Shown one piece after another: positions 1,683-29,203 of a DNA stretch of 64,000 nucleotides. The stretch lies in the sequence record MH719082.1, one strand, 5' to 3'. Position 1 is the stretch's first letter. Each line of letters opens with the position of its first letter. This DNA comes from Escherichia phage vB_EcoM_IME392. The translations under genes were made by a program, and so were the position numbers. The notes under the pieces are model-generated. The model was not told where the DNA came from. It ran no database searches and saw only the letters and a program-made list of their open reading frames with translations.

Positions 1683-1713
1683 TTAACAGCCTTTCAAGAC
1701 CCTAAAAGAGCGG
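1683..1713 (-). promoter_or_regulatory. Conserved bipartite intergenic motif, copy 1 (candidate promoter)
   Basis: Plus-strand TTAACAGCCTTTcaagaccctAAAAGAGCGG, about 33 nt upstream of the kinase start at 1650. On the minus strand it reads CCGCTCTTTT-N-AAAGGCTGTTAAAAT (TG-n-TAnnnT-like). Confidence 0.4.
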
Positions 1714-1739
1714 ACTAAAAAGGCTGGTGTAAATGTGAA

Positions 1740-2711
1740 CTAGCTAAACTTATACCAGCGAGGTCTCATACGGATCTCGTGATTCAGTTTATGTAGTTTC
1801 GAGAATTCGCAGAATGAGTTGGTGAACATCTGACGAGTATAGAACCGCTCATCCTCCGGCATGAAGTGGAACCATTTCTCCGGCTCCCATGCATACCCGA
1901 AATGAGCACATATCTCTTTGATGTTCTGATACCACCATTCCACGAACATCTGGTAGCCGCAAGGAGGGTTCTGGTCATTAAGCATGTACCATACCCCATC
2001 CTGCGTCCCGGGTCCACATACGATAGCATCGTTATCTGTGTACGCAGTCTCTTTAGAGTAGGACATAGTTGCCCAGCATTGATATGCCATGAACGGACCT
2101 AATCCAGATACCTGTAACAGATGCTCGATGGCCTCGGTAGCGAACGGAGACTTCCATGCCAGTAAGATAGGATCACTGTAGGTCTTCACCAGATAGGCTC
2201 TGGCAGCTACACTGTACTTAATATCCTCTGGACATACTTCATTAGCCATCTTAACTGCTGTGCTAAGGAAGTAGGCATTTGATTGCTGTGGAGCAGTGAA
2301 CGGAGGACCATCCTCATAACGACGTAGCTCTTCACGACCCATGTTATGTATGTCGTCATAGCTCATCTCATAAAGAGGAAGGACTCTGCGGAAGCGATCC
2401 ATATATGAATCACCACGGTTTATCATCTGGAAGAGTACCACGTTAAGCGCCTTACTCTCCCAGCTTAGGGAATCGTTCTCCAGAATGTTCTTGATAGCCC
2501 ATACTGTTTCACGATCGTGCTTACGGAACACGTTAGTGAATTTAAACTTACTAATCCACTTATGTTCTGTCCACGGAGGAGGTAGCTTAAGTATCTCCTT
2601 CTTATAATAAACCTCAGTCCGCTCGCGGTTATACTCCACATACTCACGTAGCTCCTCGGGATTTATCATCCCGAGTAACCCGTCGAAGTGCAAACCTAAC
2701 GGTTTAGACAT
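1740..2711 (-). CDS. Hypothetical protein, Trp/Cys-rich, in the putative DNA-modification module
   Basis: 323-aa ORF with canonical ATG (2711-2709) overlapping the stop of the upstream gene (TAATG). No motif I can name with confidence. Confidence 0.5.
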   Translation of the reverse strand: MSKPLGLHFDGLLGMINPEELREYVEYNRERTEVYYKKEILKLPPPWTEHKWISKFKFTNVFRKHDRETVWAIKNILENDSLSWESKALNVVLFQMINRGDSYMDRFRRVLPLYEMSYDDIHNMGREELRRYEDGPPFTAPQQSNAYFLSTAVKMANEVCPEDIKYSVAARAYLVKTYSDPILLAWKSPFATEAIEHLLQVSGLGPFMAYQCWATMSYSKETAYTDNDAIVCGPGTQDGVWYMLNDQNPPCGYQMFVEWWYQNIKEICAHFGYAWEPEKWFHFMPEDERFYTRQMFTNSFCEFSKLHKLNHEIRMRPRWYKFS

Positions 2712-3790
2712 TAAAGAATACCTTCTTTGGTAAAGTAGTCTATTACTTCATCCTGAAGTTCTTGTGCGTAATCCTTGCGCAGATATAGATTCTCATACTG
2801 ATGTTTCAGCAGAGCATCACGATCTTTCAGTTTCTCTGCAATCTCCGCATTACTGGAGACGATCAGAGGAGCCAGTAGCTCTTCGGGGACGCCGCTCCGG
2901 ATTATTGTTCCAGCAGCATCTTTATCCACCAGCATCAGAGTACCAGAGCTCAGGTATTCGTAATAACGGTTAGGTGGGCTGGTATAGAACGAATTACTGG
3001 AGTTCCAGTCTTCGATAAGCAGTACCGCTGCATATTTAGCCACTTCATCCAGCATCTCTGACAGCTTAAACTTAGGCAGCCAGTTAATCGGAGCAGCAGG
3101 TCCCAGCCACTTACGTTCTTTAGGATCCAGCTCTTCCCAGTTTTCCTGCTCGTAGCCGTCAAATCCTGCAAGACCACCAGTATGTTTAGCGATGGACATC
3201 TGAGCTTTGTAGCTCGGCACCGACATAAACAGTTCCAGACCATCTTGCTGGGAGAAGTACTGAGTGAACTTATGGAAGCGGCCTTCACGAGCAGCACCGT
3301 AATACAGCAGGCTATTGTCCGGCTTATCTGACGATCCATAGCGAGGCTTACGACCAGGAACGTAGGTAAGACGGTTCCAGTTAATGTGATGATAGTTCTC
3401 TTCGCTAGGAGAATACTGATTACCCCAGGAAGTACGTTCAAATGCTGCTACAACTTTAAATACAGTAGCTGCGGTGATGTGTCTCCACTGCGGACCCTGG
3501 ATACGCATCTTAGACGAGTAATCCTGTCCAATCCAGTAGAACTTAGCTCCGACATCTGCCTGGTCTACCCAGAACTTATACATCTCGTCGCGGAACTTAC
3601 AGAAGGTAGGAACACCATTGATGGCGATAATCACGTCATATTTAGTGCCATCTTCCATAGCCTTAACGAACTTAGGAGTATCGTCCAACAGGTCAGCTTG
3701 AAGTCCGTAGGCTAACCAGGAAGCCAGAGTATTACTGGCAATGATGGATTTATCGCTGCATGGCGAAAAGTTAGTTACTGCAATCTTCAT
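2711..3790 (-). CDS. Glycosyltransferase resembling phage DNA beta-glucosyltransferase (T4 BGT-like, GT-B fold)
   Basis: 359 aa. N-terminus MKIAVTNFS..., YDVIIAINGVPTF, LLYYGAAREGR and AAVLLIEDWNSSNSF...TLMLVD line up with my recollection of T4 beta-glucosyltransferase (MKIAIINMG..., IYGGSFRSGQR, IAALIIGDKNYNDNF...AVMLID). GGAGAAA RBS before ATG 3790. Confidence 0.5.
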   Translation of the reverse strand: MKIAVTNFSPCSDKSIIASNTLASWLAYGLQADLLDDTPKFVKAMEDGTKYDVIIAINGVPTFCKFRDEMYKFWVDQADVGAKFYWIGQDYSSKMRIQGPQWRHITAATVFKVVAAFERTSWGNQYSPSEENYHHINWNRLTYVPGRKPRYGSSDKPDNSLLYYGAAREGRFHKFTQYFSQQDGLELFMSVPSYKAQMSIAKHTGGLAGFDGYEQENWEELDPKERKWLGPAAPINWLPKFKLSEMLDEVAKYAAVLLIEDWNSSNSFYTSPPNRYYEYLSSGTLMLVDKDAAGTIIRSGVPEELLAPLIVSSNAEIAEKLKDRDALLKHQYENLYLRKDYAQELQDEVIDYFTKEGIL

Positions 3791-3817
3791 GTTTAATTTC
3801 TCCGTAGGCTGTCACAA

Positions 3818-3850
3818 TTTAACAGCCTTTTAGCTCATCAAAGAAGCGAG
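3818..3850 (-). promoter_or_regulatory. Conserved bipartite intergenic motif, copy 2
   Basis: TTTAACAGCCTTTTagctcatcAAAGAAGCGAG, about 30 nt upstream of ATG 3790; the stop codon of gene 3838..4872 lies inside the spacer. Confidence 0.4.
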
Positions 3851-4872
3851 TTAGCTGATGCCCAGCTCAGCCAGTTATCGTTGAGATCGGTCAGGTAGGA
3901 GTAATCCTTATTCAGACCGAATACAGTACGGTTAGTTCCGTCGAACTTCATTATACCAGCGCCAGGAGCTCTGATGATTGCATCTTCCGTAGCCAGACAA
4001 TATTCTTTCAAGTATTCCTGGATGTTGGGACGAATACGACGGAAGGAACTATCTGCCGAGTCATAGTGGAACATATCTGCGCAGTGCCACTGTACGTAGG
4101 ATTTATCCGGACGGCTGAGTAGTTCATTACGGGTAACCATATCTTTAGGAGAATATCCCAGCTTAGCTACAGTGACTTCGTGAATACCTCCACCATTAGA
4201 CGAAGTATCCATCAGCCAGTTTTCGTCCCAGTAGAACGAAGTACCAGTACCAGTTACCTGTCCAACCTTCCAGCCCATCGCCATACCTTTAAACAACAGG
4301 TAGCAATCTTCTCCTACGGTCAACTGTTGGAAGGTTATATCGAACAGCCAGAACATCTTCTCACTGGTCTTGACCATGATACCGAGGTCAGTGGCCGGAG
4401 CAGTGTTATTATGTGACTGACGATCGCATAGTTCAACAATCTTGTAGTTACGATTCTTGAAGCTACGGACGAACGCCATCTCAAACTCAGATCCCTCGAA
4501 GTCTATAACGGAACGGTCCAGATGGAAAATATTATCTGCGAACCAGACATCATCATCCACGAAGTAGCAGATGTCTGGACACCAGTTCTGATCCTCCATT
4601 AAAATCCATGCCTTATCAAGAGCATGAGCTCGGATTCTTCCGATTACCGGATTATCGTACTTAGGACGATGCCAGAAATTAAACTGCTCGTCCCCACCGA
4701 ACTGCTCTTCCAGAACTGCCTTATCTTCTTCGGAGGCATCCTGCATAAAGTAGAAGAAACGATACTCGATAGAGTCGTCAGTCTTCTTAGCATCTTTGAA
4801 CGACTGAATCTGACGGAGTACCGACTTCATACGATGATAGGTTGGGATGATAAAAGCCACTTTGGTAGTCAT
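3838..4872 (-). CDS. GT-A-type glycosyltransferase (family-2-like, DxD motif)
   Basis: 344 aa. N-terminal VAFIIPTYHR (cf. GT2 IIPTYNR) and DxD-like YFVDDDVWF. Confidence 0.5.
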   Translation of the reverse strand: MTTKVAFIIPTYHRMKSVLRQIQSFKDAKKTDDSIEYRFFYFMQDASEEDKAVLEEQFGGDEQFNFWHRPKYDNPVIGRIRAHALDKAWILMEDQNWCPDICYFVDDDVWFADNIFHLDRSVIDFEGSEFEMAFVRSFKNRNYKIVELCDRQSHNNTAPATDLGIMVKTSEKMFWLFDITFQQLTVGEDCYLLFKGMAMGWKVGQVTGTGTSFYWDENWLMDTSSNGGGIHEVTVAKLGYSPKDMVTRNELLSRPDKSYVQWHCADMFHYDSADSSFRRIRPNIQEYLKEYCLATEDAIIRAPGAGIMKFDGTNRTVFGLNKDYSYLTDLNDNWLSWASANSLL

Positions 4873-4878
4873 ATTTAT

Positions 4879-5490
4879 TTATCCAATTTGACGAACTAAG
4901 CGAAACCCTTCGGCGTACGGCCACTGGGCAGAATATCCACGTAAGGTGGCTAGAGCTAAGATACTCTGGGTATCTCGGTCTGACTTAATCTGGGAGTCGA
5001 ATCGTCCCATAGCCTGGCACTTACACTCAATATCGTCCTTATTCAGACGCTCGAAGTAATTAGGTTCCATCTGACCGAACTGGGTCAGGGACTCGGCATA
5101 CTCATATTCCAGGATAAGCCAGTTATACGCTCGGAGAGCTACACGAGCAGCATGATTAACTAGTTGATGGTCCTGGTGTAGGCTACTGAACGGAATATAG
5201 ACTACATCCGGCCTGATTTTAGCAACATAGTCCGCAATATCCTTAGCCAATTGCGGAATATCCTTCTGAGTCATACCATCGCCTGTGGAGGCATCGTTAC
5301 GCTCCAGGCAATGTACTTCTTTGATATTCGGATAGACACCGAATGCTGCTTCGGCTTCACCACGACGGGTCTCGTCCGGAGCAGTTACTTCGAGGATGAA
5401 AAATTGGTCGTCGCGGAATTTGCTCATAATACCTCCGCAACCCAGAATCTCATCATCGTGATGTGGGCTGATAATCAATCGTGACTTCAT
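4879..5490 (-). CDS. PIG-L/LmbE-family zinc-dependent de-N-acetylase
   Basis: 203 aa. Signature LIISPHHDDEILGCGG (PIG-L HPDDE motif) and downstream HQDHQ. GAGGA RBS before ATG 5490. Confidence 0.7.
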   Translation of the reverse strand: MKSRLIISPHHDDEILGCGGIMSKFRDDQFFILEVTAPDETRRGEAEAAFGVYPNIKEVHCLERNDASTGDGMTQKDIPQLAKDIADYVAKIRPDVVYIPFSSLHQDHQLVNHAARVALRAYNWLILEYEYAESLTQFGQMEPNYFERLNKDDIECKCQAMGRFDSQIKSDRDTQSILALATLRGYSAQWPYAEGFRLVRQIG

Positions 5491-5505
5491 TATTAATCCT
5501 CGCTA

Positions 5506-5541
5506 CACAAAAATGGGGTTAGGCCGTAGAGACCTAACCCC
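5506..5541 (-). terminator. Rho-independent terminator-like hairpin between the BCCT and deacetylase genes
   Basis: Plus strand caaaaat-GGGGTTAGG-ccgtagaga-CCTAACCCC: 9-bp perfect stem, followed on the minus strand by a TTTTT run. Confidence 0.45.
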
Positions 5542-5555
5542 GTACGCCTCTGACA

Positions 5556-5590
5556 CCTTAACAGCCTTTTAGGTCATCAAACAGGAGGAG
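5556..5590 (-). promoter_or_regulatory. Conserved bipartite intergenic motif, copy 3 (degenerate downstream block, overlaps the BCCT stop codon)
   Basis: CCTTAACAGCCTTTTaggtcatcAAACAGGAGGAG; the second block lies in the last codons of the BCCT gene. Confidence 0.3.
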
Positions 5591-6959
5591 TTTCCTTAGC
5601 CAAGAATACTTTAGGTACAAAGATCTTGAGGAACCCGAATAGAATACACAATACCCCAATCAGTACCGGAACAGCCGATACAGCTACCAGAGTCTTCGTT
5701 ACAGTTACTACGTCACCACCTGCCCAGTTAAGTGCAGCAGCAACTACACCCATGCTTACAATCCAGAATACACGAGTTCTAGGAGCGGTCATGGACTCTA
5801 CCGTAATACCTGCTGAGTCATGACCTGTAATAAAGAACAGAATCACAGACACGAGGGTAATTACTGAGAATATCCATCCGCCTGGGAAATTAGCCAGAAG
5901 CTGGAAGATATCCTGAGCACCATGTTGCAAACCGGCTACACCGAATACGGTAAACCATACGTTACTGATAATGGTAGGGAACAGTACACATCCCAGGATC
6001 AGTTCGCGAATAGTACGGCCGTAAGAGATACGTGCCACAAACGCTCCGACGAATAATGCCCAACCTACCCAGGCTGCATAGTAAGCATAAGGCCAGCTAG
6101 CCAGCCATTGCTTCTCTTCAGCAGTACTGCCAATGTTTACCGACATAGGAATAATCTGGAGCAGATAGCTGCCAGAATAGGTGATGGTCTTCCAGAGGTA
6201 TTCAAAGAATGTACCACTTACAGCAACGAATGCCATAATAGATAGAGCTACGATTACATTATATCTGGATAACCACTTAACCCCACGATCGACACCAGTT
6301 ACGGCACTAAGTACAGTGCCCAGAGTCAGGAGTGCGATAATGGTGTAAGGACCAACATCCACACCAAGGAACTCTTTAAATCCAGAACTGATCGGGCCTA
6401 CTGCGTAGACGAACGACAGGGTTAAGCCTATGATGGTCGAGAAGAGTAAGCTTATCGTATTAAGGTTATTCAGAGTTCGGGACTTGAATAACTGATTAAG
6501 CGGACGGTCTTCACCACGTACATGCAGTAAGTACCCGAATGCCACCCCTACGACTGCATACACAGCCCATGCATTAAGTCCCCAGTCAAAGAAGGTAGTT
6601 ACCATATTCTGACGTTCGGACATACCCTCCTGATGATGGTACATAGGTTCGAGTACGCCATAATAAATCATGGATACACCCATACCGGTACTAAACATCA
6701 TAGAGTAATAGGTAAAGCGATTGTATTTCGGAGTACCTTTACCCAGCTTAATGTTACCATGTTTGCTGAATACAAAGAATGCCAGGAACGCCAGGAAGAT
6801 CAGCGAAGACCAGGTAAATATGAATCCATACTGAGATATAAATACAGACTTACTCCAGTCCATTACAGCACCAAACTGGGTGGGAGCAAACATAATGGCG
6901 AGTACAATACCCACCGTTACCAGCACCGTCCCCCAGGTAACTACCTTTGAATCGGACAT
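5577..6959 (-). CDS. BCCT-family (betaine/carnitine/choline-type) secondary transporter, polytopic membrane protein
   Basis: 460 aa, about 12 hydrophobic segments. Carries the BCCT signature region WPYAYYAAWVGWALFVGAFVARISYGRTIRELILGCVLFPTIISNVWFTVFGVAG (cf. BetP/CaiT W-x-FYWAWW-x-W-x-PF-x-G-x-F-x-ARIS-x-GRTIRE) and FSTGMGVSMIYYGVLEP. GAGGAA RBS before ATG 6959. Confidence 0.8.
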   Translation of the reverse strand: MSDSKVVTWGTVLVTVGIVLAIMFAPTQFGAVMDWSKSVFISQYGFIFTWSSLIFLAFLAFFVFSKHGNIKLGKGTPKYNRFTYYSMMFSTGMGVSMIYYGVLEPMYHHQEGMSERQNMVTTFFDWGLNAWAVYAVVGVAFGYLLHVRGEDRPLNQLFKSRTLNNLNTISLLFSTIIGLTLSFVYAVGPISSGFKEFLGVDVGPYTIIALLTLGTVLSAVTGVDRGVKWLSRYNVIVALSIMAFVAVSGTFFEYLWKTITYSGSYLLQIIPMSVNIGSTAEEKQWLASWPYAYYAAWVGWALFVGAFVARISYGRTIRELILGCVLFPTIISNVWFTVFGVAGLQHGAQDIFQLLANFPGGWIFSVITLVSVILFFITGHDSAGITVESMTAPRTRVFWIVSMGVVAAALNWAGGDVVTVTKTLVAVSAVPVLIGVLCILFGFLKIFVPKVFLAKETPPV

Positions 6960-6962
6960 TGA

Positions 6963-7871
6963 TTATTCCTCAATTACGCCCTTAGCGATTAACTGGCGAC
7001 GGACGTATGCGTAGCCAGCAGGTGAAGTAGCGAGGACGATGTCCGCACTACGGAAGTTGGTTTCGATATAGAAGCACTCCTGAAGATCCCGAGTACAGAA
7101 GAGCTCAGTACTCATCATACCCTCGCGTACGTTACATGCATCTGCAACGAATTGCGCAACATCTTCGAAGTGGTCTACCGAATGACTATAGCCGAATCCA
7201 CGGGCATCAGTAGATATAACGTAGTTAGGGCAGTACGGAGTGAAGTCAGTATCTTCGTAGGATTTACCCTGGATAGTGAAGATATCTGCATAGTCCTTGA
7301 ACCCGCTCGGGCTAACCAGAAGATCCCAGGCAACTACCATACCATCGATAACATCTGCCTGAAGTACCAGAGAGGTAGTATATTCGTCCGGTGCCTTATC
7401 GCAGACCAAAATTGGGGAGTCTCCCAGAAGGTCCGACATAGTGCCCGCACCCTTGCCCCCGTGAACACGATCACGGCGTACAAACGCCTCCTGAGGCCTC
7501 TGGTACAGTCTGAACGACGGTACAATCAGCGAATCAGGCAGAGTTCCCAGGTTAGCTTCGGAGCGAAGGCAGGATAATTGGTCAGCTTTAGACCACGTAC
7601 TTTCGATAGCGTGCAGATCGTTACCGATTTTGGTATAGATATAGCTTTCCGGATTACGGCACTTACCCTGATTCAACTCTTCGATAACCGAGTCGAAATA
7701 AGGAAGTCGTACTGATCCCTCACGAGGAGCAGTTAACGCTACTGAGCCATGCTTGGTATGATCCTGATCAACTACCATAACCTGGTCCAGACTTACACCC
7801 ATCTTAAGAATCTGGGATAATGTAGCTGCCGTGTGATTAGTGCAGCCAATCATCAAATCTAACTTCTTCAT
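6963..7871 (-). CDS. Hypothetical protein (possible ligase/transferase; weak ATP-grasp-like E-x-N motif)
   Basis: 302 aa; contains HGGKGAGT and YIETNFRS. Assignment is tentative. GAGGAA RBS before ATG 7871. Confidence 0.4.
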   Translation of the reverse strand: MKKLDLMIGCTNHTAATLSQILKMGVSLDQVMVVDQDHTKHGSVALTAPREGSVRLPYFDSVIEELNQGKCRNPESYIYTKIGNDLHAIESTWSKADQLSCLRSEANLGTLPDSLIVPSFRLYQRPQEAFVRRDRVHGGKGAGTMSDLLGDSPILVCDKAPDEYTTSLVLQADVIDGMVVAWDLLVSPSGFKDYADIFTIQGKSYEDTDFTPYCPNYVISTDARGFGYSHSVDHFEDVAQFVADACNVREGMMSTELFCTRDLQECFYIETNFRSADIVLATSPAGYAYVRRQLIAKGVIEE

Positions 7872-7897
7872 TTTAATTCCTCAGTTAACTTGTACAA

Positions 7898-7928
7898 CCT
7901 AACAGCCTTTCGAACCCTAAAAAGAGCG
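7898..7928 (-). promoter_or_regulatory. Conserved bipartite intergenic motif, copy 4
   Basis: CCTAACAGCCTTTcgaaccctAAAAAGAGCG, about 30 nt upstream of ATG 7871. Confidence 0.4.
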
Positions 7929-7942
7929 AAATAATAGATATC

Positions 7943-7964
7943 TAGCCATCTCGTAAGATGGCTA
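7943..7964 (-). terminator. Hairpin directly downstream of the methyltransferase gene (possible terminator)
   Basis: TAGCCATCT-cgta-AGATGGCTA, 9-bp perfect stem; flanked by T/A-rich sequence but no clean U-run. Confidence 0.3.
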
Positions 7965-7972
7965 TGTATATA

Positions 7973-8713
7973 TTACTTTAATTCGGAGAGATCTGCGATC
8001 TTCACCTTAGCTGATACATCCCAGATTCCTTCACCAAATCCGGTATCTTCCAGCAGCTTAGGCACTTCACGTTTCTGTACCTTAGATTGCTCGTACTTAA
8101 GCAGAGGAATATTACCGGTCTTATCTGATTGATCCCACAGATAAGTAGCAGCACCGATGTTATCGAACAGTGCGAGATCTGGATTAAACTGGGTAAGGAG
8201 TCGGCAGTCCCAGTGAGACTTATGTTCCTCGAAAGGATTAGTTTCCGTGCCACGCTGACGATACTCATAGTTAGGAGTACCGATCACGATTTTAGCCTTA
8301 GACTGGAATAGCTTAGACAACACCATAAGCCCGTCTTCGCTATCCAGATGCTCCAACACATCCAGCCAGATAATAGTGCCGAATTTATCCAGCTCTTCAA
8401 TAGGAAGATCTTTCAACAGTTCAACGATATTGCAGATATAGATATCGCTATATACATTTACACTGCCTTTGATGTAGTCTTCGCAGATGTCCAGACCTGT
8501 AATCTGACCATCGAATCCTGCGTTACGGAGAGCAAGACCAATTTCTCCACGACCTAATCCCATATCCAGGATTGGCCCGGAGATAATTTCGTTACGGAGC
8601 ATCCATTGGAGAAAGTGCTTCTGGACTAAGTAGGAGGTGCCTCCGTTGCCCAGTGAAGCCTTCGTGACCTTAGTACCAGGAACGAAATTACACTCGATAT
8701 GTTTACCAAACAT
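7973..8713 (-). CDS. Class I SAM-dependent methyltransferase
   Basis: 246 aa. Motif I ILDMGLGRGEIG, acidic post-I ITGLDI, motif IIWLDVLEHL. GAGGA RBS before ATG 8713. Confidence 0.6.
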   Translation of the reverse strand: MFGKHIECNFVPGTKVTKASLGNGGTSYLVQKHFLQWMLRNEIISGPILDMGLGRGEIGLALRNAGFDGQITGLDICEDYIKGSVNVYSDIYICNIVELLKDLPIEELDKFGTIIWLDVLEHLDSEDGLMVLSKLFQSKAKIVIGTPNYEYRQRGTETNPFEEHKSHWDCRLLTQFNPDLALFDNIGAATYLWDQSDKTGNIPLLKYEQSKVQKREVPKLLEDTGFGEGIWDVSAKVKIADLSELK

Positions 8714-8737
8714 GTTCTGTCCTCATTAGTTTCGACA

Positions 8738-8770
8738 CCTTAACAGCCTTTGGAGCCGTAAAAGAAGTGG
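8738..8770 (-). promoter_or_regulatory. Conserved bipartite intergenic motif, copy 5
   Basis: CCTTAACAGCCTTTggagccgtAAAAGAAGTGG, lying between the terminator hairpin (8784-8811) and the RBS of gene 7973..8713. Confidence 0.45.
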
Positions 8771-8783
8771 TATTGTACATATT

Positions 8784-8811
8784 CAAAAATTAGGGTGGCC
8801 GAAGCCACCCT
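8784..8811 (-). terminator. Rho-independent terminator after the topoisomerase II medium-subunit gene
   Basis: AGGGTGGC-cgaa-GCCACCCT (8-bp GC-rich stem; UUCG loop on the minus transcript), immediately followed on the minus strand by TTTTT. Confidence 0.6.
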
Positions 8812-8817
8812 AGTTAG

Positions 8818-10065
8818 TTACAGTTTACCGATCATCTTCTGAATCATCTCGTCAGAAGTCTGATTCTCTACCTTAGCACGACGTTCTTGCAGATTAGCAA
8901 TGCGGTCGTCGTGATCTTTCTTACGTAGCATGCTGATGCTACGGCTAAGGCAGGAATTCAACACTTCCTGGGTAATACCGAGAGCTTTGATGATCTGAGC
9001 ATCAGACTTATCCTGCATAACCAGCTCGCCCACTTTAGGAAGAATCTGGTAAATCTCGATGTCTCGGTCAATCTTCTTAAGAGACTCAGTCTTATGGACG
9101 GAGAATGCCTGATTGTAGAGAGCCATCGTGACTGCAATCCAGTCGCGAATACCCATCGTCACCAGTTGACCATTGTAGGCTACCTGGATACGATGCGAGC
9201 GGTTCATGTAAGCAATATTCATGCATGCTTCGTGAACCTCGTCCATATCGATGGTCCTGATACGGGGAGCCTTCATTACTCGGATATAGATCTTATCCTT
9301 GGACATGTTCTTGACCAGGATCTTACCTTCTGATAACCACTTATTCAGGAACCCGATGCGAGGAGTAATTACCTCACCAGACCCGATGATGTCGATGGTG
9401 TCGGTATTGACGCGAGTTACCTTAAGGGTAAGGCCTAAGCGACCTACACCAGTTTCCCATAAGGACTTAAGGTCTGACTTACTCGGCACGATATCATACC
9501 CGTACTGAGCCTTAAGCAGATTATAATCGTCATGCTTGTAGGCTTCCAGCAGACTCTCGTAAGTGAATGCTGGGATACGGGACTGAATACCAGTAGCCCA
9601 TGAGAAGGTACCATACATCAGAGCATACGGAATAGGCACTGGAAGGTATGCGTATTCCATCTTCTCTTCACCTTCAACCTGCGGAACATAGTCCGCTAGA
9701 CCGAAGTAGTATTCTGCACGATCTTCGTTCAGGCCAACCTTCGTGTAACGAGGAGCAGCACCAGGAACTTCTTCCAGCAACTTAACGCCGAAAGATCCCT
9801 GACCATCAATAGCACCGATGCGAGCAAGACGGGAAATAGTCCCATCGATAGACTGGTCACCGAATGGGTGTAGCGACTGAGTTTCTGAGATAGCGCTCAG
9901 AGTCCCCACCAGCTTCCCACGAGCAATGCTATTCAGAGCCATGTAGATACGGCGCTGGGCAGGAATCAGGCCATCGATACCGGGAACTACACGATGAAGA
10001 GCACAATACACACTGTAGTCAGTGTAGTTCTTGGTGATGAATTCAGAAATCTTTACCTGTTCCAT
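8818..10065 (-). CDS. DNA topoisomerase II medium subunit (GyrA-like cleavage domain; T4 gp52-like)
   Basis: 415 aa. VVPGIDGLIPAQRRIYMAL resembles the GyrA/ParC DGLKPVQRR-ILY motif. Adjacent to and co-oriented with the ATPase/Toprim subunit. AAGGAG RBS. Confidence 0.75.
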   Translation of the reverse strand: MEQVKISEFITKNYTDYSVYCALHRVVPGIDGLIPAQRRIYMALNSIARGKLVGTLSAISETQSLHPFGDQSIDGTISRLARIGAIDGQGSFGVKLLEEVPGAAPRYTKVGLNEDRAEYYFGLADYVPQVEGEEKMEYAYLPVPIPYALMYGTFSWATGIQSRIPAFTYESLLEAYKHDDYNLLKAQYGYDIVPSKSDLKSLWETGVGRLGLTLKVTRVNTDTIDIIGSGEVITPRIGFLNKWLSEGKILVKNMSKDKIYIRVMKAPRIRTIDMDEVHEACMNIAYMNRSHRIQVAYNGQLVTMGIRDWIAVTMALYNQAFSVHKTESLKKIDRDIEIYQILPKVGELVMQDKSDAQIIKALGITQEVLNSCLSRSISMLRKKDHDDRIANLQERRAKVENQTSDEMIQKMIGKL

Positions 10066-10067
10066 AA

Positions 10068-12053: not shown

Positions 12054-12087
12054 AATTTCTCCGGTCAGGTTTAAATAAGCTCACACA

Positions 12088-12120
12088 GTTTAACAGCCTT
12101 TGGAGGCCTCAAAGGAGCGG
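12088..12120 (-). promoter_or_regulatory. Conserved bipartite intergenic motif, copy 6
   Basis: GTTTAACAGCCTTTggaggcctcAAAGGAGCGG, about 37 nt upstream of the topoisomerase large-subunit start. Confidence 0.4.
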
Positions 12121-12752
12121 TTCACGAACAGGACTAAATCCTCTACTCTGGACTTATCTACCCACTCTGTTCTTCCTGGTAAGGACCTATTAGACTCGGA
12201 GAAGAAAGATAATCTCACTTTTGATTCTAAATCCACTCCCTCTTCTTTAGGCATCTCGATTAAGATTAGCGGGGTCATACCGATGCCTAATCCATCTAAT
12301 CTTCTTTCTATATTTGAAGTAATCCCATATTTAGCATTTCCAGATTGGTCCAATACGATATAAAAGACCACCTTACCTTCTGGAATGGTAGATATCGCTA
12401 GGTTCTTAATCACAGAGTTAGCGTATTCAGGATTCAACCATCGTTTATGATTTGAAGAGGATATCACTTTAGACATCTTCTTCTGGTAGTTCTCATCTTC
12501 CCACATTTTAATGTTGCGATTAGTCATGGAAACAGACCTAGCCCTGGTGGCGCATTCTGATCTTCCACATGTAGGACGATAGCCCTTAATCACGGATTTA
12601 AAGGAGCAGGGTTTTCCACATGAACATATTTTTACAGGAAAGAATTTTAAGTAATATTCATGCGGAGTTAAGCCATGAGATTTGGCATGGGAGGGAAATG
12701 CCTGGCCTCTTACTTCGGCAGAGCATATTCTACATTTATGATTCATAATCAT
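12090..12752 (-). CDS. Zinc-finger protein with GIY-YIG/T5orf172-like C-terminal segment (possible homing-endonuclease-like gene)
   Basis: 220 aa. N-terminal Cys/His cluster (CRICSAEV...H...H, KICSCGKPCSF, TCGRSEC); C-terminal VVFYIVLDQSGNAKYGITSNIERRL resembles GIY-YIG-type motifs. Locally AT-rich compared with flanking genes. Note the ORF's 3' end overlaps motif copy 6. Confidence 0.35.
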   Translation of the reverse strand: MIMNHKCRICSAEVRGQAFPSHAKSHGLTPHEYYLKFFPVKICSCGKPCSFKSVIKGYRPTCGRSECATRARSVSMTNRNIKMWEDENYQKKMSKVISSSNHKRWLNPEYANSVIKNLAISTIPEGKVVFYIVLDQSGNAKYGITSNIERRLDGLGIGMTPLILIEMPKEEGVDLESKVRLSFFSESNRSLPGRTEWVDKSRVEDLVLFVNRSFEASKGC

Positions 12753-12990
12753 ACCACTTAGTTAATTCAAGGAAGTCATCCATCGCGGAATTAAAGAAGG
12801 AGTCTATCTCCTTAGCCATTTCCTTGGCGAAGCGACCAGATTCGGTCGACATCACTACCTTAGCCTCGCCCATAGGGTGCTTGACCACTTCGTAGATTCC
12901 CAGATTTGGGTAATACACTATGCTGGATAGGAAGTTTACAGACTTAACCACCACAGTATTGAATTGAGTTACTTCCACCATCTTAATCAT
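12736..12990 (-). CDS. Hypothetical small protein
   Basis: 84-aa ORF with ATG, co-oriented and overlapping its neighbours in an operon-like arrangement. Confidence 0.4.
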   Translation of the reverse strand: MIKMVEVTQFNTVVVKSVNFLSSIVYYPNLGIYEVVKHPMGEAKVVMSTESGRFAKEMAKEIDSFFNSAMDDFLELTKWYDYES

Positions 12991-13301: not shown

Positions 13302-13343
13302 AAATCGTTTTATTTTTCATTATTTGAAAAATAAAATAATCTA

Positions 13344-13369: not shown

Positions 13370-13373
13370 TCAA

Positions 13374-16139
13374 CTACTCTTCCATAAACGTAGTTACGTT
13401 ATTGGAAAGGTAGGCACCAATTTTAGTGTTATATCTCTGGAAGGTAGGAACATGGGTAACCAGGATGATGTGGTTAACCGGAATGTCCTGAAGAGCATCA
13501 ATAGCTACGTCCAGAGTATTTACGTCCAGATTTCGCAGAGACTCATCCAGAATCAGACATCCTGCTCCCTTACTGAGGCTAATCAGCTTACCGATGAACA
13601 GTACGTCCACCAGGTTCTGTTGGCCACCAGACAGATCAGCATACGGAATTAACAGATCTCCAACTTTGTATTGAACATCGAAGTCAATCTTGATAGCTCC
13701 GTTAGCCTGTTCACGAACAGTAGAAATTACCATATCTCCACCAGTCATCATAGCAGCTACTTCTTTGAAGATAGAAGCAGTTACATCGCCGCTATTAGTG
13801 AACAGGCTCTGATACTCAACCAGTTTCTGATACTTAGGCTGGAGAATAGCCAACTGCGCATTAGCATCGTCGAGTTTCTTCTGAGCCTCGTCCATACGAG
13901 TCTTCAGACTACGAAGAGTAGCCATAGCGCCGATGGTAGAGTTGATCTCGATTAGCTCCTGCTCCAGCTTAGCCACTTCCTCTTCGAGAACCTGCACGGA
14001 AGGATAGGACTTAGTCTTACTCTTAAGCACTTCCACGTCGCTATTAACGGTATGGATCTTCTGACGAAGAGTAGCCACATCGTTCAGCAGACCGGACTTA
14101 CGTCTTAGTTCGGCTAATTCACTATTCTTAACGTTAAGCTTCTCTCTGAGTTCATCAGACTTAGGAGCCTTACTGATCTCAGCCTCGACAGCATCCAGCT
14201 TAGTAACAGATGCAGATCCTTGGGTTTCGAGATCATCCATCTTAGCTCTGATAGACTTCTCTACTTCTTTAATGTCCTCTTCCTTAAGGGACTGCTTACA
14301 GGTTGGGCACGTAGTAGGGATGTTGCGCATCTCGGTCTCGAGCTTAGTTAACTCCTTCTCTAAGCGAGTTAACTCATTAGTCAGAGATTCACTCTGATTA
14401 TGCAGTGACCGGATGTTACCTTCTACTTCAGATACCTCGGCATCCAGAGTAGTGATTTCGTCCCGGACCTTAGCGAGAGCGGAGTTAACCTCCTCTTCGT
14501 TAAAGTCAATCTTGAACGCAGCCAGAGAATCTTCCAGCATCTGGAGACTCTGTAGCTTACTGTCCAGATTACCCAGCTCACGGATCTTCTGACGAATATC
14601 ATCAATCTGTGGCAGGATTCGAGACTTATCTTCTTCCAGATTACTCACGTCCTTAAGTTTGGAGAAGTCGTGATCCTCCATGGTCTTAAGGACTTCTTCC
14701 TGAGCAGTTACCTGGGTCTGATAGTTACTGATCTCTACCTTACAGTTCTTAGCCGAGGCCTTTGCGACAGCTTCGTACTGGTTAATTACGGTAAGACCGA
14801 GCATCTTCGTGATCAGGTTAATACGTTCGTTGAATCCGAACTGGCTCAAGAACGGAGGACTATTCTGGGAACGATACAGAAGATCGAAGTGTTCGAGGAA
14901 TGGCAACATCTCCCAGAGCTTAGCTTCACGCTCTCGGATACTACCACCATCCATCTCATCACCATCAATCCAGACTCGGAAAGTCTGACCACCAGCCCAA
15001 TGGCGACTGATCAGGAATTCACGACCACCATACTCTAGCATCACTTCTACCAGAAGATGGTCTTGACCGCGTCTCACCACGTTACGAGGACTGTCGCTAC
15101 CAGTTAAGCAGTAGTTAAGAGCTCTCAGCAACGAGGATTTACCGTTACCAGTTTCGCCGTAGAGATAAGTAAGACCTCGCTTAAAGTTAAGCTCCAGCTT
15201 ATCAATACTGCGGAAGTTCTCTACCTTAATACTATTCAAGGTAAAGTTAAGGTCGAAGACCGACTCGGAACGATCAACGTGGGTAGACATCTCATCATGG
15301 ATATCTTTAAGACCCTTTGCCCGAACGACTTTGTCGATTACTTCTTCAACATCGATAGATTTAACTGAGATGCGTGAAGCATCCATCATCTGAGCTCTTT
15401 CACGAACTACCAGATGAGGGTAATTATCCATACCGGCAGGTACTTCATCTTCCCAGTACATCTTGAGGTATTTGTAGGAGTCAGACTCTACCGGAACCCG
15501 CTGCCAGGAAAGATCTTTAAGATCCAGCAGCACCAAGCTACCGTCCTGACAGTCACCCATCCCGTGAGGAATAGGTACGTTAACCGAGTGGGTATGACCG
15601 ATGCTGATAGGACGATGGATGTCACCAGCAAATCCCAGCTCATACTTAGTATCGTCGAACTCCTGACCAAACATAGAGGACAGAGTAATGTGGCCAATAA
15701 GGACATCTACTTTATCTTCGATAAAACTGAAGTCCTGGGTAGGACGCCAGTCGCTAAAGGCGACCTTACGGCCACCTAAGTTCAGGATTTTACCATCGAC
15801 ATATTCTGCCTTACCAGCGAGGATCGGCACCAGTGAGTTCTGGTAGTGATCAGCATCTACTGATTTGGAGTTAATGTCGTGGTTACCCAGAATATAATAA
15901 ATCTCGGTAAACTGCTCACCGAGGATCTCCATAAACTGGGATGTAGCGTGTGCAATTTTAGGCTCATGCTGAGCCTTATGCACTAAGTCGCCAGCGATAG
16001 ACAGACAGGTTACTTTATGTTCCCTGCCCATCTCCGCCATACGATGAGCTAAACCGATAAACTGCTTTAAGCGAAACCCTTCCGAGTTATGCTGCTGAAA
16101 TTCATGGATATGAATATCAGCTACGATCAACATTTTCAT
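13374..16139 (-). CDS. Fused Mre11/SbcD-like nuclease and Rad50/SbcC-like ATPase (T4 gp47 plus gp46 equivalents in one polypeptide)
   Basis: 921 aa, one continuous ORF. N-terminal calcineurin-like phosphoesterase motifs (IVADIHIH, AGDLVHK, GNHD, GHTH); then Walker A YGETGNGKSS, long coiled-coil with a CPTC zinc-hook-like CxxC in the middle, ABC signature LSGGQQ, Walker B CLILDE and H-loop VTH at the C-terminus. Confidence 0.8.
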   Translation of the reverse strand: MKMLIVADIHIHEFQQHNSEGFRLKQFIGLAHRMAEMGREHKVTCLSIAGDLVHKAQHEPKIAHATSQFMEILGEQFTEIYYILGNHDINSKSVDADHYQNSLVPILAGKAEYVDGKILNLGGRKVAFSDWRPTQDFSFIEDKVDVLIGHITLSSMFGQEFDDTKYELGFAGDIHRPISIGHTHSVNVPIPHGMGDCQDGSLVLLDLKDLSWQRVPVESDSYKYLKMYWEDEVPAGMDNYPHLVVRERAQMMDASRISVKSIDVEEVIDKVVRAKGLKDIHDEMSTHVDRSESVFDLNFTLNSIKVENFRSIDKLELNFKRGLTYLYGETGNGKSSLLRALNYCLTGSDSPRNVVRRGQDHLLVEVMLEYGGREFLISRHWAGGQTFRVWIDGDEMDGGSIREREAKLWEMLPFLEHFDLLYRSQNSPPFLSQFGFNERINLITKMLGLTVINQYEAVAKASAKNCKVEISNYQTQVTAQEEVLKTMEDHDFSKLKDVSNLEEDKSRILPQIDDIRQKIRELGNLDSKLQSLQMLEDSLAAFKIDFNEEEVNSALAKVRDEITTLDAEVSEVEGNIRSLHNQSESLTNELTRLEKELTKLETEMRNIPTTCPTCKQSLKEEDIKEVEKSIRAKMDDLETQGSASVTKLDAVEAEISKAPKSDELREKLNVKNSELAELRRKSGLLNDVATLRQKIHTVNSDVEVLKSKTKSYPSVQVLEEEVAKLEQELIEINSTIGAMATLRSLKTRMDEAQKKLDDANAQLAILQPKYQKLVEYQSLFTNSGDVTASIFKEVAAMMTGGDMVISTVREQANGAIKIDFDVQYKVGDLLIPYADLSGGQQNLVDVLFIGKLISLSKGAGCLILDESLRNLDVNTLDVAIDALQDIPVNHIILVTHVPTFQRYNTKIGAYLSNNVTTFMEE

Positions 16140-16993: not shown

Positions 16994-17008
16994 AGTCTAC
17001 CTAGAGCG

Positions 17009-17036: not shown

Positions 17037-17045
17037 ATTAGTTAA

Positions 17046-18056: not shown

Positions 18057-18115
18057 CTTTGTGATCTCTATTTAAACAATGTTTCAACAATCATAATCAG
18101 AGTTGCCCTCTGACA

Positions 18116-18148
18116 CCTTAACAGCCTTTCGACCCTCCAAAAGAGCGG
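18116..18148 (-). promoter_or_regulatory. Conserved bipartite intergenic motif, copy 7
   Basis: CCTTAACAGCCTTTcgaccctccAAAAGAGCGG, about 60 nt upstream of ATG 18056. Confidence 0.4.
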
Positions 18149-18152
18149 CGGA

Positions 18153-27521: not shown

Positions 27522-28064
27522 TTAGACGCTCGCCTCAGGCACTTTAACAGCCTTTGGACGTGTAAAAAGAGCGGGATTATACCATTCTGGGGTACGATAG
27601 AAAGAGATCTTACGACCCTCTTTCTTCCAGAAGTAGAATTTATCGTTGAGGTAGTTACGGTACTTCTCGTAGACTGTCTCACCAGGAGCACCTGATACAC
27701 ATGCATACGGAGTCATATCGGTCTCTGGACCTACTACCAGATTTTTAGGTAGTGCCACAAGACGGGATAAAATTTCTTCGGTTGCATGGAGCCGTCCGGT
27801 ACGTTCAAAGAATAGCATGCATAAATAGCTTGCCAAGTCACGAACGAAGTTGTAGTTACCTGACGATTCACGAACCCACTTAGCACACGGATGATTAACA
27901 TGCGTCTGCTTATAAATACCCTCGATAGCGTTTTCGCCATCCAGAACATGATGAGCAGTAGATAATAACTGAGCACACTCAATAATCATTTTATTCTGGT
28001 GCATAGGCATACAGTGGTCCATAGCACATTCTAACGCATCTTCGTGAGTACGGAAAATATTCAC
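27522..28064 (-). CDS. Hypothetical protein (His/Cys-containing; function unknown)
   Basis: 180-aa ORF with a GTG start per the ORF track and GGAGTA RBS. The last 17 codons (...TRPKAVKVPEASV) are encoded by motif copy 13. Confidence 0.5.
   Translation of the reverse strand: MNIFRTHEDALECAMDHCMPMHQNKMIIECAQLLSTAHHVLDGENAIEGIYKQTHVNHPCAKWVRESSGNYNFVRDLASYLCMLFFERTGRLHATEEILSRLVALPKNLVVGPETDMTPYACVSGAPGETVYEKYRNYLNDKFYFWKKEGRKISFYRTPEWYNPALFTRPKAVKVPEASV
27542..27574 (-). promoter_or_regulatory. Conserved bipartite intergenic motif, copy 13 (embedded in the 3' end of CDS 27522..28064)
   Basis: CTTTAACAGCCTTTggacgtgtAAAAAGAGCGG. Confidence 0.35.
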
Positions 28065-28146
28065 AATAATTACTCCTAACGTGGTTGCTTACTTTAAGTC
28101 TCTCGTGAAAGATTTAGAGTAAGCATCGGAGGAATTACCTCCGACA

Positions 28147-28179
28147 CTTTAACAGCCTTTCGACGGCACAAAAGAGCGG
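28147..28179 (-). promoter_or_regulatory. Conserved bipartite intergenic motif, copy 14
   Basis: CTTTAACAGCCTTTcgacggcacAAAAGAGCGG, followed on the minus strand by the hairpin TCGGAGG-taatt-CCTCCGA, then the RBS and start of gene 27522..28064. Confidence 0.4.
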
Positions 28180-28181
28180 TT

Positions 28182-28343
28182 TTAAATTTTACATGCATCT
28201 CCGCAGTCGTCGTCACCAGGCTGGCTGATAACTTCGTCTACGTTAACCATGCGATCTTCTACACGACGAGATGCCTCGTCTAATTCTTCCTGAGATGGGA
28301 GATTGGAGAAATCCAATTCTTCACCAGATTTATTGCCTGACAT
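28182..28343 (-). CDS. Small highly acidic protein (candidate DNA-mimic-type anti-restriction factor; speculative)
   Basis: ORF track 28182..28388; ATG at 28343 preceded by GGAG gives a 53-aa product MSGNKSGEELDFSNLPSQEELDEASRRVEDRMVNVDEVISQPGDDDCGDACKI with about 15 Asp/Glu against 5 Lys/Arg. Confidence 0.35.
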   Translation of the reverse strand: MSGNKSGEELDFSNLPSQEELDEASRRVEDRMVNVDEVISQPGDDDCGDACKI

Positions 28344-28812
28344 AATCACTCCACACGTTAATAACTTCTTTACCACAGGATTTAGCATAGGCTACACAGT
28401 TACCTGTGCCACCCGAACTACCATCCCATAGGGCTAATCCCATCTGACTACGGTTAACCATGTATCGGTTACGCACCATCATCTTGAAGGAATCATACCC
28501 AGGCTCGGACACTATAATTGTGCGACGACTTTTTCTGCATAGCTCAGTCCATTTTTCTGTATCTGCAGATCGCCACATTTTGGGTTGGTCAATCATAGGG
28601 ATTGTTGCAAAGTATGGTATTCCGAGATTGGCACATGCCTGAGCACATGCCATATCCCATCCTAACGCCATACCTATAAACCAGCAGTCCACGCTATTCT
28701 TAGCTGTAAGCTCCTGGATGTGATGTTCGGCAAACTGGGTAAGATGATCATGGCTAAAGTTATCCCATCCACCCAGCTTATCTGGCCTATGACCAGTCAC
28801 GAACATAAACAT
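28330..28812 (-). CDS. Hypothetical protein (possible Rossmann-like nucleotide-binding fold)
   Basis: 160-aa ORF with several Cys and a Gly-rich segment DGSSGGTGNCVAYAKSCGKEV; family unassigned. Confidence 0.4.
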   Translation of the reverse strand: MFMFVTGHRPDKLGGWDNFSHDHLTQFAEHHIQELTAKNSVDCWFIGMALGWDMACAQACANLGIPYFATIPMIDQPKMWRSADTEKWTELCRKSRRTIIVSEPGYDSFKMMVRNRYMVNRSQMGLALWDGSSGGTGNCVAYAKSCGKEVINVWSDYVRQ

Positions 28813-29153
28813 TACTTCTTGCCCATCTTAGCCTGCATAGCACGGACGGTATCCATGGCGCTGGCCAATTTGGCTGAAGTATCCTGCGGACCATCTTCTT
28901 CTAGCTGTTTCTTAAGGGACTCCATACGATCAGTAGTACCCTTAGTATCCATCTCGATTAATTCGTTGATGGTCGAACCACCCACGTTAGGTAACTTACC
29001 CAGCTGAGTAAGATCCTTAACTTCTGGGATTTTAACATGAAGTTGAATAGACTGGGATGCTCTCGCGAACGACCCAGCACGACGATTGTCTCCTACCTTA
29101 TTGTACAGGGAAGATAGGTTACCCAGGAACGTAATGATATCAGCAGTTTTCAT
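28812..29153 (-). CDS. Helix-hairpin-helix-type DNA-binding protein (putative)
   Basis: ORF track 28812..29195 (TTG start); ATG at 29153 (MKTADIITFLGNL...) is preceded by GGAGGA. HhH-like segment DLTQLGKLPNVGGSTINELIE. Confidence 0.4.
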   Translation of the reverse strand: MKTADIITFLGNLSSLYNKVGDNRRAGSFARASQSIQLHVKIPEVKDLTQLGKLPNVGGSTINELIEMDTKGTTDRMESLKKQLEEDGPQDTSAKLASAMDTVRAMQAKMGKK

Positions 29154-29171
29154 ATTTGATTCCTCCAACAA

Positions 29172-29203
29172 GTTAACAGCCTTTCGACCGTACAAAAGAG
29201 CGG
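29172..29203 (-). promoter_or_regulatory. Conserved bipartite intergenic motif, copy 15
   Basis: GTTAACAGCCTTTcgaccgtacAAAAGAGCGG, directly upstream of the GGAGGA RBS of gene 28812..29153; this is the last copy before the strand switch. Confidence 0.45.

Follow-up and report, generated by a model that had tools for sequence, protein, structure and literature searches.

What reads a sequence that recurs, always in the same orientation, along one arm of a phage genome? The question arose from a 64,000-nucleotide (nt) stretch of Escherichia phage vB_EcoM_IME392 (sequence record MH719082.1), here called the window, in which a bipartite motif is repeated along a minus-strand arm running from 29,200 to 900. 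The arm is densely packed with genes, among them those for a helicase, a 5'-3' exonuclease, an SbcC/SbcD-like fusion, two topoisomerase II subunits, a BCCT transporter, and two tRNAs. From the anatomy, position, orientation, spacing, conservation, and clade variation of the motif, we infer that it is probably a phage-specific promoter of the non-structural genes (early/middle, replication, nucleotide-modification, and tRNA genes), and we propose where transcription would start and which proteins may read it.

The 12-mer core of the motif, TTAACAGCCTTT, is found in 14 exact copies and in one variant form, CTAACAGCCTTT, always on the plus strand and between positions 1683 and 29184 of the window (starts at 1683, 3819, 5558, 7899, 8740, 12090, 18118, 23325, 24311, 25776, 27303, 27486, 27544, 28149, and 29173). 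Allowing up to two mismatches gave 25 matches versus 4.74 +/- 2.08 expected, a count reached by 0 of 100 shuffles. A 36-nt weight matrix applied to the whole window retrieved exactly 15 sites, all on the minus strand (1678 to 29203) and scoring 37 to 54 bits. The runner-up, at 16 bits, overlaps a real copy, the range from 16 to 37 bits is empty, and the maximum in shuffled sequence (20 shuffles) was 10.6 bits. No site was found on either strand at 29,300 to 64,000, in the late module.

Read on the minus strand, the consensus is CCGCTCTTTT-N9-AAAGGCTGTTAA-nn-TG, and the full pattern runs from an a/t-rich lead through CCGCTCTTTT, nine variable bases, (G)AAAGGCTGTTAA, n, n, T, G, and T to a purine-rich stretch. 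We aligned 25 copies without gaps, 15 from the window and 10 from the closest relative, Escherichia phage EP_H11 (111,373 bp), which is 93% identical to the window and is its only close relative in GenBank. The spacer between the two blocks is exactly 9 nt in all 25 copies. Eleven consecutive bases, AAAGGCTGTTA, are invariant, as is the G four bases past TTAA (minus-strand TTAA-nn-TG); the T before this G is present in 24 copies, the sole exception being the C of copy 24341-24306. The upstream block (AAAAGAGCGG on the plus strand) is looser, with six exact copies, GCTCTTT exact in 15 of the 25, and only C23, C25, and T29 invariant. Columns 59 to 63 of the alignment are purine rich, with A at column 61 in 20 copies.

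Each copy in the window lies in a short gap or over the last codons of a gene (10 of 15 overlap or abut the upstream gene's stop codon), and either a start codon follows 16 to 81 nt past the invariant G or the copy heads a tRNA or non-coding stretch. Every putative +1 falls in a non-coding gap. Five copies are found within the first 2 kb of the arm, the first of them with no co-oriented gene upstream, and four point into a 2.3-kb stretch without open reading frames (ORFs) that carries tRNA-Arg and tRNA-Met. The copies, and the two intrinsic terminators beside them, are the following (sizes of ORFs in amino acids [aa]).

29168 to 29203, minus strand: copy 1, 50.5 bits, reading CCGCTCTTTTGTACGGTCGAAAGGCTGTTAACTTGT; head of the arm, 90 nt from the divergent late (terminase) module.
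28144 to 28179, minus strand: copy, 53.6 bits; over the stop codon of a 68-aa ORF, with a 180-aa ORF starting 81 nt downstream.
27539 to 27574, minus strand: copy, 47.0 bits, first of a tandem pair 58 nt apart; over the end of the 180-aa ORF, facing the 2.3-kb non-coding/tRNA stretch.
27481 to 27516, minus strand: copy, 53.7 bits, second of the tandem pair; facing the non-coding/tRNA stretch.
27298 to 27333, minus strand: copy, 49.0 bits; upstream of tRNA-Arg (26725-26650) and tRNA-Met (26180-26105).
25771 to 25806, minus strand: copy, 47.8 bits; within the non-coding stretch, 632 nt upstream of a 263-aa ORF (25140-24349).
24306 to 24341, minus strand: copy, 37.4 bits; over the stop codon of the 263-aa ORF, 53 nt from the next ATG.
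23320 to 23355, minus strand: copy, 40.6 bits; heading an operon of a 179-aa ORF, the helicase gene (22779-21139), and a 419-aa ORF.
18113 to 18148, minus strand: copy, 54.1 bits; before a 336-aa ORF, the 5'-3' exonuclease gene (16993-16136), and the SbcCD-like fusion gene (16139-13374).
12085 to 12120, minus strand: copy, 51.5 bits; before the two topoisomerase II subunit genes (12053-10068 and 10065-8818).
8791 to 8812, minus strand: intrinsic terminator, 9-bp stem plus ATTTTT; directly upstream of the next copy.
8735 to 8770, minus strand: copy, 45.1 bits; 20 nt past the terminator and 23 nt before the ATG of a 246-aa methyltransferase-like ORF.
7894 to 7929, minus strand: copy (TTAG variant), 44.6 bits; past a 9-bp hairpin (7964-7943), before a 302-aa ORF and the BCCT transporter gene.
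5553 to 5588, minus strand: copy, 38.5 bits; over the BCCT stop codon, followed by a terminator hairpin (z = -3.74) and then a 203-aa ORF.
5515 to 5541, minus strand: intrinsic terminator, 11-bp stem plus ATTTTT; 11 nt downstream of copy 5588-5553.
3814 to 3849, minus strand: copy, 43.0 bits; over the stop codon of a 344-aa ORF, 25 nt before the ATG of a 359-aa ORF.
1678 to 1713, minus strand: copy, 48.4 bits; between 323-aa and 244-aa ORFs (by synteny a 5-hydroxymethyldeoxyuridine [5-hmdU] DNA kinase and an AAA_28 protein).

An earlier, sequence-only reading of the window had described the motif as present at least 15 times in a single orientation, restricted to the minus-strand arm and missing from the plus-strand late module, and the weight matrix agrees on every point. 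Its placement of copies upstream of ribosome-binding sites (RBSs) and start codons was also borne out: the copy it located at 23323 as heading the replication operon is copy 23355-23320 ahead of the helicase operon, and the one at 8738, said to lie between a terminator and an RBS, follows terminator 8812-8791 and precedes an RBS. Both blocks of its consensus stand, with the refinement that the upstream block is looser and that the element reaches on to TG; its spacer of 8 to 10 nt has to be replaced by a constant 9 nt. It had also proposed a search of the rest of the genome and of related phages; in the window and in EP_H11 the motif was placed in the non-structural arm only, and relatives have it at orthologous sites, as described next.

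EP_H11 contains 23 exact copies and one variant. They occupy only the gene strand of a 73-kb non-structural arm, which runs from 97,487 across the record end to 55,406; the late module of EP_H11 (59,678 to 97,324) has none. Between orthologous copies of the two phages, changes occur in the spacer, at the "nn" positions, and in the flanks, with the blocks unchanged; in copy 1 the changes are confined to the spacer, "nn", and flank. The tandem pair 27574/27516, a 58-nt duplication, is a single copy in EP_H11 (99116), and the EP_H11 orthologue of copy 27333-27298 has TTAA mutated to TTGA (TTGAA) and a diverged downstream region, a pattern that points to copies still being gained and lost. In contigs retrieved by protein searches, L132 (~79% aa identity), L131 (~74%), and L133 (~58%), the element is kept at the same intergenic sites; L133 has the downstream block intact (TCTAAAAGGCTGTTAAnnTG) and the upstream block drifted (GGCTCTTTATT, CAATCTTTTTG). 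The same architecture is found in Acinetobacter phage Ab1-TPeters, whose RNA polymerase (RNAP) subunit beta-prime is 38% identical (GCTGTCTCTTAA-N9-10-AAAACCTGTTAAnnTG), and a 110-kb metagenomic contig, L134 (~30% aa identity), carries GGGCGCTTA-N-(T)AAAGCCAGTTAAnnTG. The core across relatives is AAA-[GGC/ACC/GCC]-(T/A)GTTAA-nn-TG, followed by G-rich sequence. The GGC/ACC/GCC triplet is constant inside each clade and different between clades in an otherwise constant core, a pattern that recognition by a co-evolving phage protein would produce.

Farther afield, the beta-prime-encoding Ralstonia phage RP13 has no equivalent motif, and Vibrio phage 1.031.O does not share it but has another repeated upstream sequence, GAGTCTTAGGAACCCCTTTCTTTTGTGGGG ... 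TTAATCTATTGGAGAT-ATG. At 27500 to 36500 of this Vibrio phage, which encodes beta-prime and a sigma-like protein, GAGTCTTAGGAACCCCTTTCTTTTGTGGGG and then TTAATCTATTGGAGAT-ATG stand before many genes and probably represent a promoter of the Vibrio phage itself together with a conserved RBS context. We considered a homology of the Vibrio TTAATCTATTGGAG to TTAAnnTGTnGGAG of the present motif and dropped it, the Vibrio sequence being tied to the start codon. A scan of IMG/VR with AAAGGCTGTTAANNTG returned single chance matches only, and a search of the same database with the terminase protein returned no match. In the literature searched we found no description of the motif or of the promoters of EP_H11 or IME92.

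We then asked in which form the element is recognized. RNAalifold predicted 0 base pairs for the 25 copies. In the dyad proposed by the sequence-only reading (GC.CTTT / AAAGGC), 92% of cells can pair, which is due only to the conservation of the two halves; across its 6 pairs there are 0 double-sided changes, and all variants break a pair or give G-U. The exact spacing, the asymmetric invariant core, and this substitution pattern point to recognition of duplex DNA by a protein.

Several features together argue for a promoter: the single orientation, the sites in gaps or at gene ends ahead of RBSs, start codons, and the tRNA region, the copy heading the arm, the tandem copies, the fixed 9-bp spacer, the bimodal scores, and the conservation at orthologous sites in five related genomes. 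Canonical sigma-70-like sites are not enriched in the arm (36 versus 34.2, and 18 versus 22.0). At 32000 to 50000 of EP_H11, sites resembling the sigma-70 consensus are depleted (19 versus 35.2 +/- 5.8 in shuffles), which may reflect avoidance of host promoters in this block of small genes.

We propose that CCGCTCTTTT and AAAGGCTGTTAA, exactly 9 bp apart, would act as two recognition blocks in double-stranded DNA and that the T-G four bases beyond AAAGGCTGTTAA would be the initiation dinucleotide. Transcription would most likely start at the invariant G or within a base or two of it (plus-strand coordinate p-4 for a copy whose 12-mer starts at p), yielding mRNAs with leaders of 16 to 81 nt, several of which would begin with a hairpin. 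Recognition would need a phage-family factor, for which the candidates are a split beta-prime and the proteins of the module "DNA pol - X - ~200 aa - beta-prime" described below, possibly in combination with core subunits of the host, and possibly with its sigma-70 as well.

A start at or next to the invariant G is favored over one at column 62, the +1 of an extended -10 register, because of the conserved T-G, the GGAGG 3 nt downstream of the G in copy 1, and the hairpins that begin at the G. Downstream of TTAA, nothing but T-G (columns 55 and 56) is fully conserved; in the relatives its sole variant is T-A, in Ab1-TPeters, which fits a pyrimidine(-1)/purine(+1) rule. In copy 1, the GGAGG is followed by an ATG (113-aa HhH protein) 16 nt past the G. 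Many copies have a hairpin that starts at +1 to +4. It starts exactly at the G in copies 28179-28144 (GUCGGAGG-UAAUU-CCUCCGAU, z = -3.35) and 18148-18113 (GUCAGAG-GGCAA-CUCUGAU), as well as in EP_H11 15295 and numerous copies from the relatives. Folding of 40-nt segments from the G gave a mean z of -1.47 for 18 copies in relatives and only -0.47 for the 25 copies of the E. coli phages.

Other observations weigh against the promoter assignment. Copy 5588-5553 runs straight into a strong terminator, an arrangement that a simple promoter does not explain, and two EP_H11 copies overlap terminator hairpins. In the EP_H11 32906 copy and its L131 orthologue, AGGCTGTTAAC, from the -10-like block, is the left arm of a 10- to 17-bp hairpin with a T-run; AGGCTGTTAAC ... 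GTTAACAGCCT is a perfect inverted repeat (EP_H11 32908-32944, L131 4404-4448) whose arms are kept, with a diverged loop, in this 74%-identity relative. In EP_H11 15295 and L132 2658, the left arm of a terminator spans columns 53 to 61. Overlapping terminator/promoter modules, in which read-through would be stopped and new transcripts would escape, would fit these two pairs but not copy 5588-5553. The letters TGnTAAnnT also constitute a host sigma-70 sequence. A motif copy (EP_H11 22480) stands upstream of the beta-prime genes themselves, so a promoter read purely by a phage RNAP would need virion-delivered protein or basal host recognition. Neither a phage beta, a sigma-70-family protein, MotA/AsiA, nor a single-subunit RNAP was detected among the large ORFs of the window and the EP_H11 proteins scanned, and X and the ~200-aa neighbor of beta-prime have no sequence match in Pfam or PDB and no fold match for their AlphaFold2 (AF2) models.

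What polymerase could then be involved? In EP_H11, beta-prime is split and its halves are in permuted order, the C-half (26,582-28,096) first and the N-half (29,676-31,244) second. The protein has Pfam Rpb1 domains 1 to 5 (E down to 3e-23), is present in one copy per genome, and is ~31% identical to enterobacterial RpoC, with the Zn finger and the NMDVDGD (DxDGD) catalytic loop intact. The more distant phages Vibrio 1.031.O and Rhizobium RHph_Y65 have a single full-length beta-prime, and no alpha homologue is detectable in the EP_H11 genome. In YerA41, also more distant, RNAP subunits and a sigma factor are virion associated (PMC7354516). Among 99 EP_H11 non-structural proteins scanned with Pfam, no MotA, AsiA, or sigma family was listed (one scan comprised the best 25 of 33 families, the other 8 having E > 0.001), Pfam scans of late-module ORFs revealed no sigma factor, and tblastn with the Vibrio phage sigma-like protein found no match in EP_H11 or Ab1-TPeters. 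Two families accompany beta-prime in every relative, the gene order being DNA pol A - X (380 to 483 aa) - small ORFs - ~200 aa - beta-prime, and this synteny extends down to ~30% identity.

EP_H11 23475 to 24926, and L134 8001 to 9143: protein X.
EP_H11 28905 to 29660, and L134 9821 to 10402: ~200-aa protein.

X (483 aa in its longest form) has ~28 representatives in 1.8 billion clusters and no Pfam match, and its AF2 model reaches a pLDDT of 72 and a pTM of 0.38. The ~200-aa ORF, upstream of the beta-prime N-half, looks helix-turn-helix-like by eye at its C terminus; its AF2 model has a pLDDT of 56 and no Foldseek match. Both are candidates for polymerase accessory or specificity factors. Two features speak for a phage-family protein in recognition of the motif: the clade-specific triplet and a set of more than 11 invariant bases for which sigma-70 has no requirement.

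The template is likely to be unusual as well. Thymidine-modification genes comprise those for a 5-hmdU DNA kinase (HMUDK_hel, 4e-35), a thymidylate-synthase homologue, a PIG-L deacetylase, glycosyltransferases, a dCTP deaminase, and a DNA polymerase fused to uracil-DNA glycosylase, and the phage DNA is probably heavily T-modified. EP_H11 has been placed among phages predicted to have hypermodified thymidine (preprint 10.1101/2025.03.26.645540).

Window 1740 to 2711: 5-hmdU DNA kinase, by synteny with L132 gene 1-763; modification genes are also found in the EP_H11 non-structural arm.

The alternative that survives best, which we regard as unlikely, is that host sigma-70 reads an extended -10 element (TG-n-TAAnnT, at -15 to -7) without a -35 element, assisted by a phage or host activator on CCGCTCTTTT and/or AAAGGC in the manner of T4 MotA, with a start 6 to 8 nt past the hexamer, in GGAGG. 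TGnTAAnnT, with T-12, A-11, and T-7, is present in 24 of the 25 copies (T47 G48 T49 T50 A51 A52 n n T55; copy 24341 has C as the last letter) and no TTGACA accompanies it, the purine-rich columns 59 to 63 with their frequent A at column 61 suit a start there, the bootstrapping of the beta-prime genes would be solved, and transcripts from column 62 would skip the terminator arms that end at column 61 (EP_H11 15295, L132 2658). Sigma-70 is, moreover, present in both E. coli and Acinetobacter. However, a geometric test places the sigma-70 start (columns 61 to 63) inside the Shine-Dalgarno sequence of copy 1 (GGAGG at 59 to 63, ATG at 72), and the same start cuts that of EP_H11 copy 55406, which begins at column 62. 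This alternative also leaves unexplained the invariant AAAGGC, the invariant G at -6, and the clade-specific triplet; 11 or more invariant bases beyond its own letters have no explanation in it; TG becomes AG in L134; hairpins that begin at the invariant G would lose their start; and thymidine hypermodification, if present, would be expected to disturb the reading of T-12 and T-7. No MotA, AsiA, or sigma family appeared in the scans described above.

The sequence-only reading had likened the downstream block to an extended -10 element and the upstream block to a MotA-like middle-promoter box. The letters of the extended -10 hold in 24 of 25 copies; its register is poorly supported, with +1 at column 62 falling inside the GGAGG of copy 1. 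For the MotA comparison, CCGCTCTTTT ends 18 bp before TAAnnT, and no MotA/AsiA-like protein was found. Its headline, a phage-specific promoter of the minus-strand arm, remains the best-supported interpretation; the RNA stem-loop that it offered as an alternative finds no support, with no predicted pairs and no compensatory changes in the dyad.

A more specific version of the phage promoter, to which we give a rather low probability, is a hybrid polymerase in which the split phage beta-prime would replace host beta-prime in the host core and specificity would come partly from beta-prime or from the adjacent conserved proteins, on thymidine-hypermodified DNA. The zipper or Zn-finger region of beta-prime could then read the invariant AAAGGC where spacer DNA meets beta-prime.

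An RNA-level signal in read-through transcripts, either a boxA-like NusB/NusE nut site or an endonucleolytic processing site giving 5' ends at TG, appears improbable to us. The boxA consensus of lambda nut and rrn is CGCTCTT(T)A, which block 1 (CGCTCTTTT) matches at 8 of 9 positions; the block thus resembles boxA (CGCTCTTTA), GCTCTTT is exact in 15 of the 25 copies, terminators follow or overlap three copies, and hairpins start directly after TG. Block 1 is, however, the less conserved of the two and departs from boxA in L133, Ab1-TPeters, and L134; there is no boxB-like hairpin or other consensus structure, and the dyad lacks covariation. Moreover, copy 1 heads the arm without a recognizable upstream promoter, and neither the tandem arrangement at 58 nt nor the ~24 copies per genome is nut-like.

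Still less probable is an operator or other binding site of a phage DNA-binding regulator, or a site targeting DNA modification, beside promoters. The two blocks make up an imperfect dyad (92% pairable) or, alternatively, an imperfect direct repeat 21 bp apart; their spacing is fixed, and a weak PadR-like match occurs among the small ORFs. Against this, no other promoter-like signal stands beside the copies, and the single orientation, the asymmetric invariant core, and the conserved T-G with its purine-rich stretch are features of an initiation site, not of a symmetric operator.

The least credible alternative, a termination or pause signal of a phage polymerase at gene ends, could draw on the 10 copies at upstream stop codons and on CTGTT, which recalls the T7 class II pause signal ATCTGTT, but against it stand copy 1 with no co-oriented gene upstream, several copies in tandem within a non-coding stretch, the separate classical hairpin terminators that precede copies 8770-8735 and 7929-7894, and the lack of a single-subunit RNAP gene among the proteins searched. 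We rejected a sigma-54 promoter (GG at -24, GC at -12, start 12 nt downstream), as the GGC-N8-TG(T) spacing is similar but 20 of 25 copies have T in place of C-12 and transcription would begin at or past the ATG of copy 1.

We compared the proposed promoter with those of known phages. Like T7, T3, and SP6 promoters, it is a long, near-invariant, strictly oriented sequence repeated before gene blocks, it has a conserved, putative +1 G at its end and a purine-rich initial transcribed region, and its relatives differ at a few "specificity" positions (here GGC/ACC/GCC). Unlike them, it is bipartite with a variable 9-bp spacer, and the polymerase gene found is a bacterial-type beta-prime, with no single-subunit RNAP domain in the large ORFs of the window or the scanned EP_H11 proteins. 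T4 MotA/AsiA middle promoters resemble it in combining a -10-like TAnnnT with a phage box in place of -35 and in standing before replication and nucleotide-metabolism genes in a phage whose DNA is modified. The MotA box TTTGCTTTA ((a/t)(a/t)(a/t)TGCTT(t/c)A) is, however, centered at -30, 11 to 13 bp from the -10, as opposed to the 18 bp between CCGCTCTTTT and the hexamer here, and T4 has no counterpart of the invariant AAAGGC.

The non-virion RNAP of AR9, a uracil-DNA phage, reads a short element and T(-1)/R(+1) (PMC7598289). The AR9 sequence on the non-template strand is AACA-N6-T(-1)R(+1), and that of phiKZ late promoters is TATG. Shared with these are a phage component of a multisubunit-type RNAP and DNA that is probably non-canonical at thymine; the conserved T-G, with a short element ~10 nt upstream, would correspond to T(-1)/purine(+1). 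The differences are that AR9 and phiKZ promoters lack an upstream block, whereas the present motif has one block at -15 to -4 and a second at -34 to -25 relative to the G; that the core letters are not the same; that the AR9/phiKZ RNAP has four split beta/beta-prime subunits and a fifth factor, whereas only the N and C halves of beta-prime were detected here; and that this beta-prime is ~31% identical to bacterial RpoC. The motif lacks at least one defining feature of each of the T7-like, T4-middle, and AR9/phiKZ families, and we place it in none.

We also noted features of the surrounding genome. The 2.3-kb stretch at 25180 to 27520 (minus strand) has no credible ORFs; a 30-aa hydrophobic ORF with a good RBS is located at 26905 to 26813. 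Rfam, run on the window and on this stretch, reported only the two tRNAs, tRNA-Arg(TCT) and tRNA-Met(CAT), and a tRNA-like 3' end (GGTTCGATTCCCTACGTGGCACCA) near 25,940 to 25,965 was called by neither ARAGORN nor Rfam. An inverted TTAACAGCC is located at 23273 to 23284, 45 nt downstream of copy 23355-23320 and within the next gene. The replication arm includes an unusual auxiliary gene, a full-length BCCT betaine/carnitine/choline transporter (5577 to 6959, minus strand; Pfam E = 1e-92), and a single 921-aa ORF (13374 to 16139, minus strand) in which an SbcD-like metallophosphatase (residues 1 to 185) is fused to an SbcC/Rad50-like ATPase with a zinc hook. In the non-structural arm of EP_H11, Pfam identified Acb1 (anti-CBASS), a PinA peptidase inhibitor, NADAR, a Pol-beta-like thumb plus HhH, and YpsA/SLOG, which point to several counter-defense and repair functions. 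The late module yielded no shared promoter motif. A terminator at 36430 to 36455 is followed by TTGACA-18-TAAATT (36470 to 36520, plus strand) upstream of a 238-aa ORF at 36560; by eye, no other good sigma-70-like site was seen in the late intergenic gaps. A degenerate inverted copy of the motif at 29215 to 29226 was rejected as a late promoter, being without conservation in EP_H11.

As a class, phage-specific promoters are familiar; the present candidate comes from an almost unstudied clade of ~110-kb myoviruses, represented by one GenBank relative and a handful of metagenomic contigs and characterized by probable thymidine hypermodification and a bacterial-type beta-prime with no recognizable beta or sigma. 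The consensus provides an immediate operon map for annotation and a candidate orthogonal promoter/polymerase pair, and its sharpness and clade-specific letters make it an experimental handle on a lone phage beta-prime and on the transcription of modified DNA. If the hybrid polymerase proves true, it would be a previously undescribed way for a virus to re-program promoter recognition.

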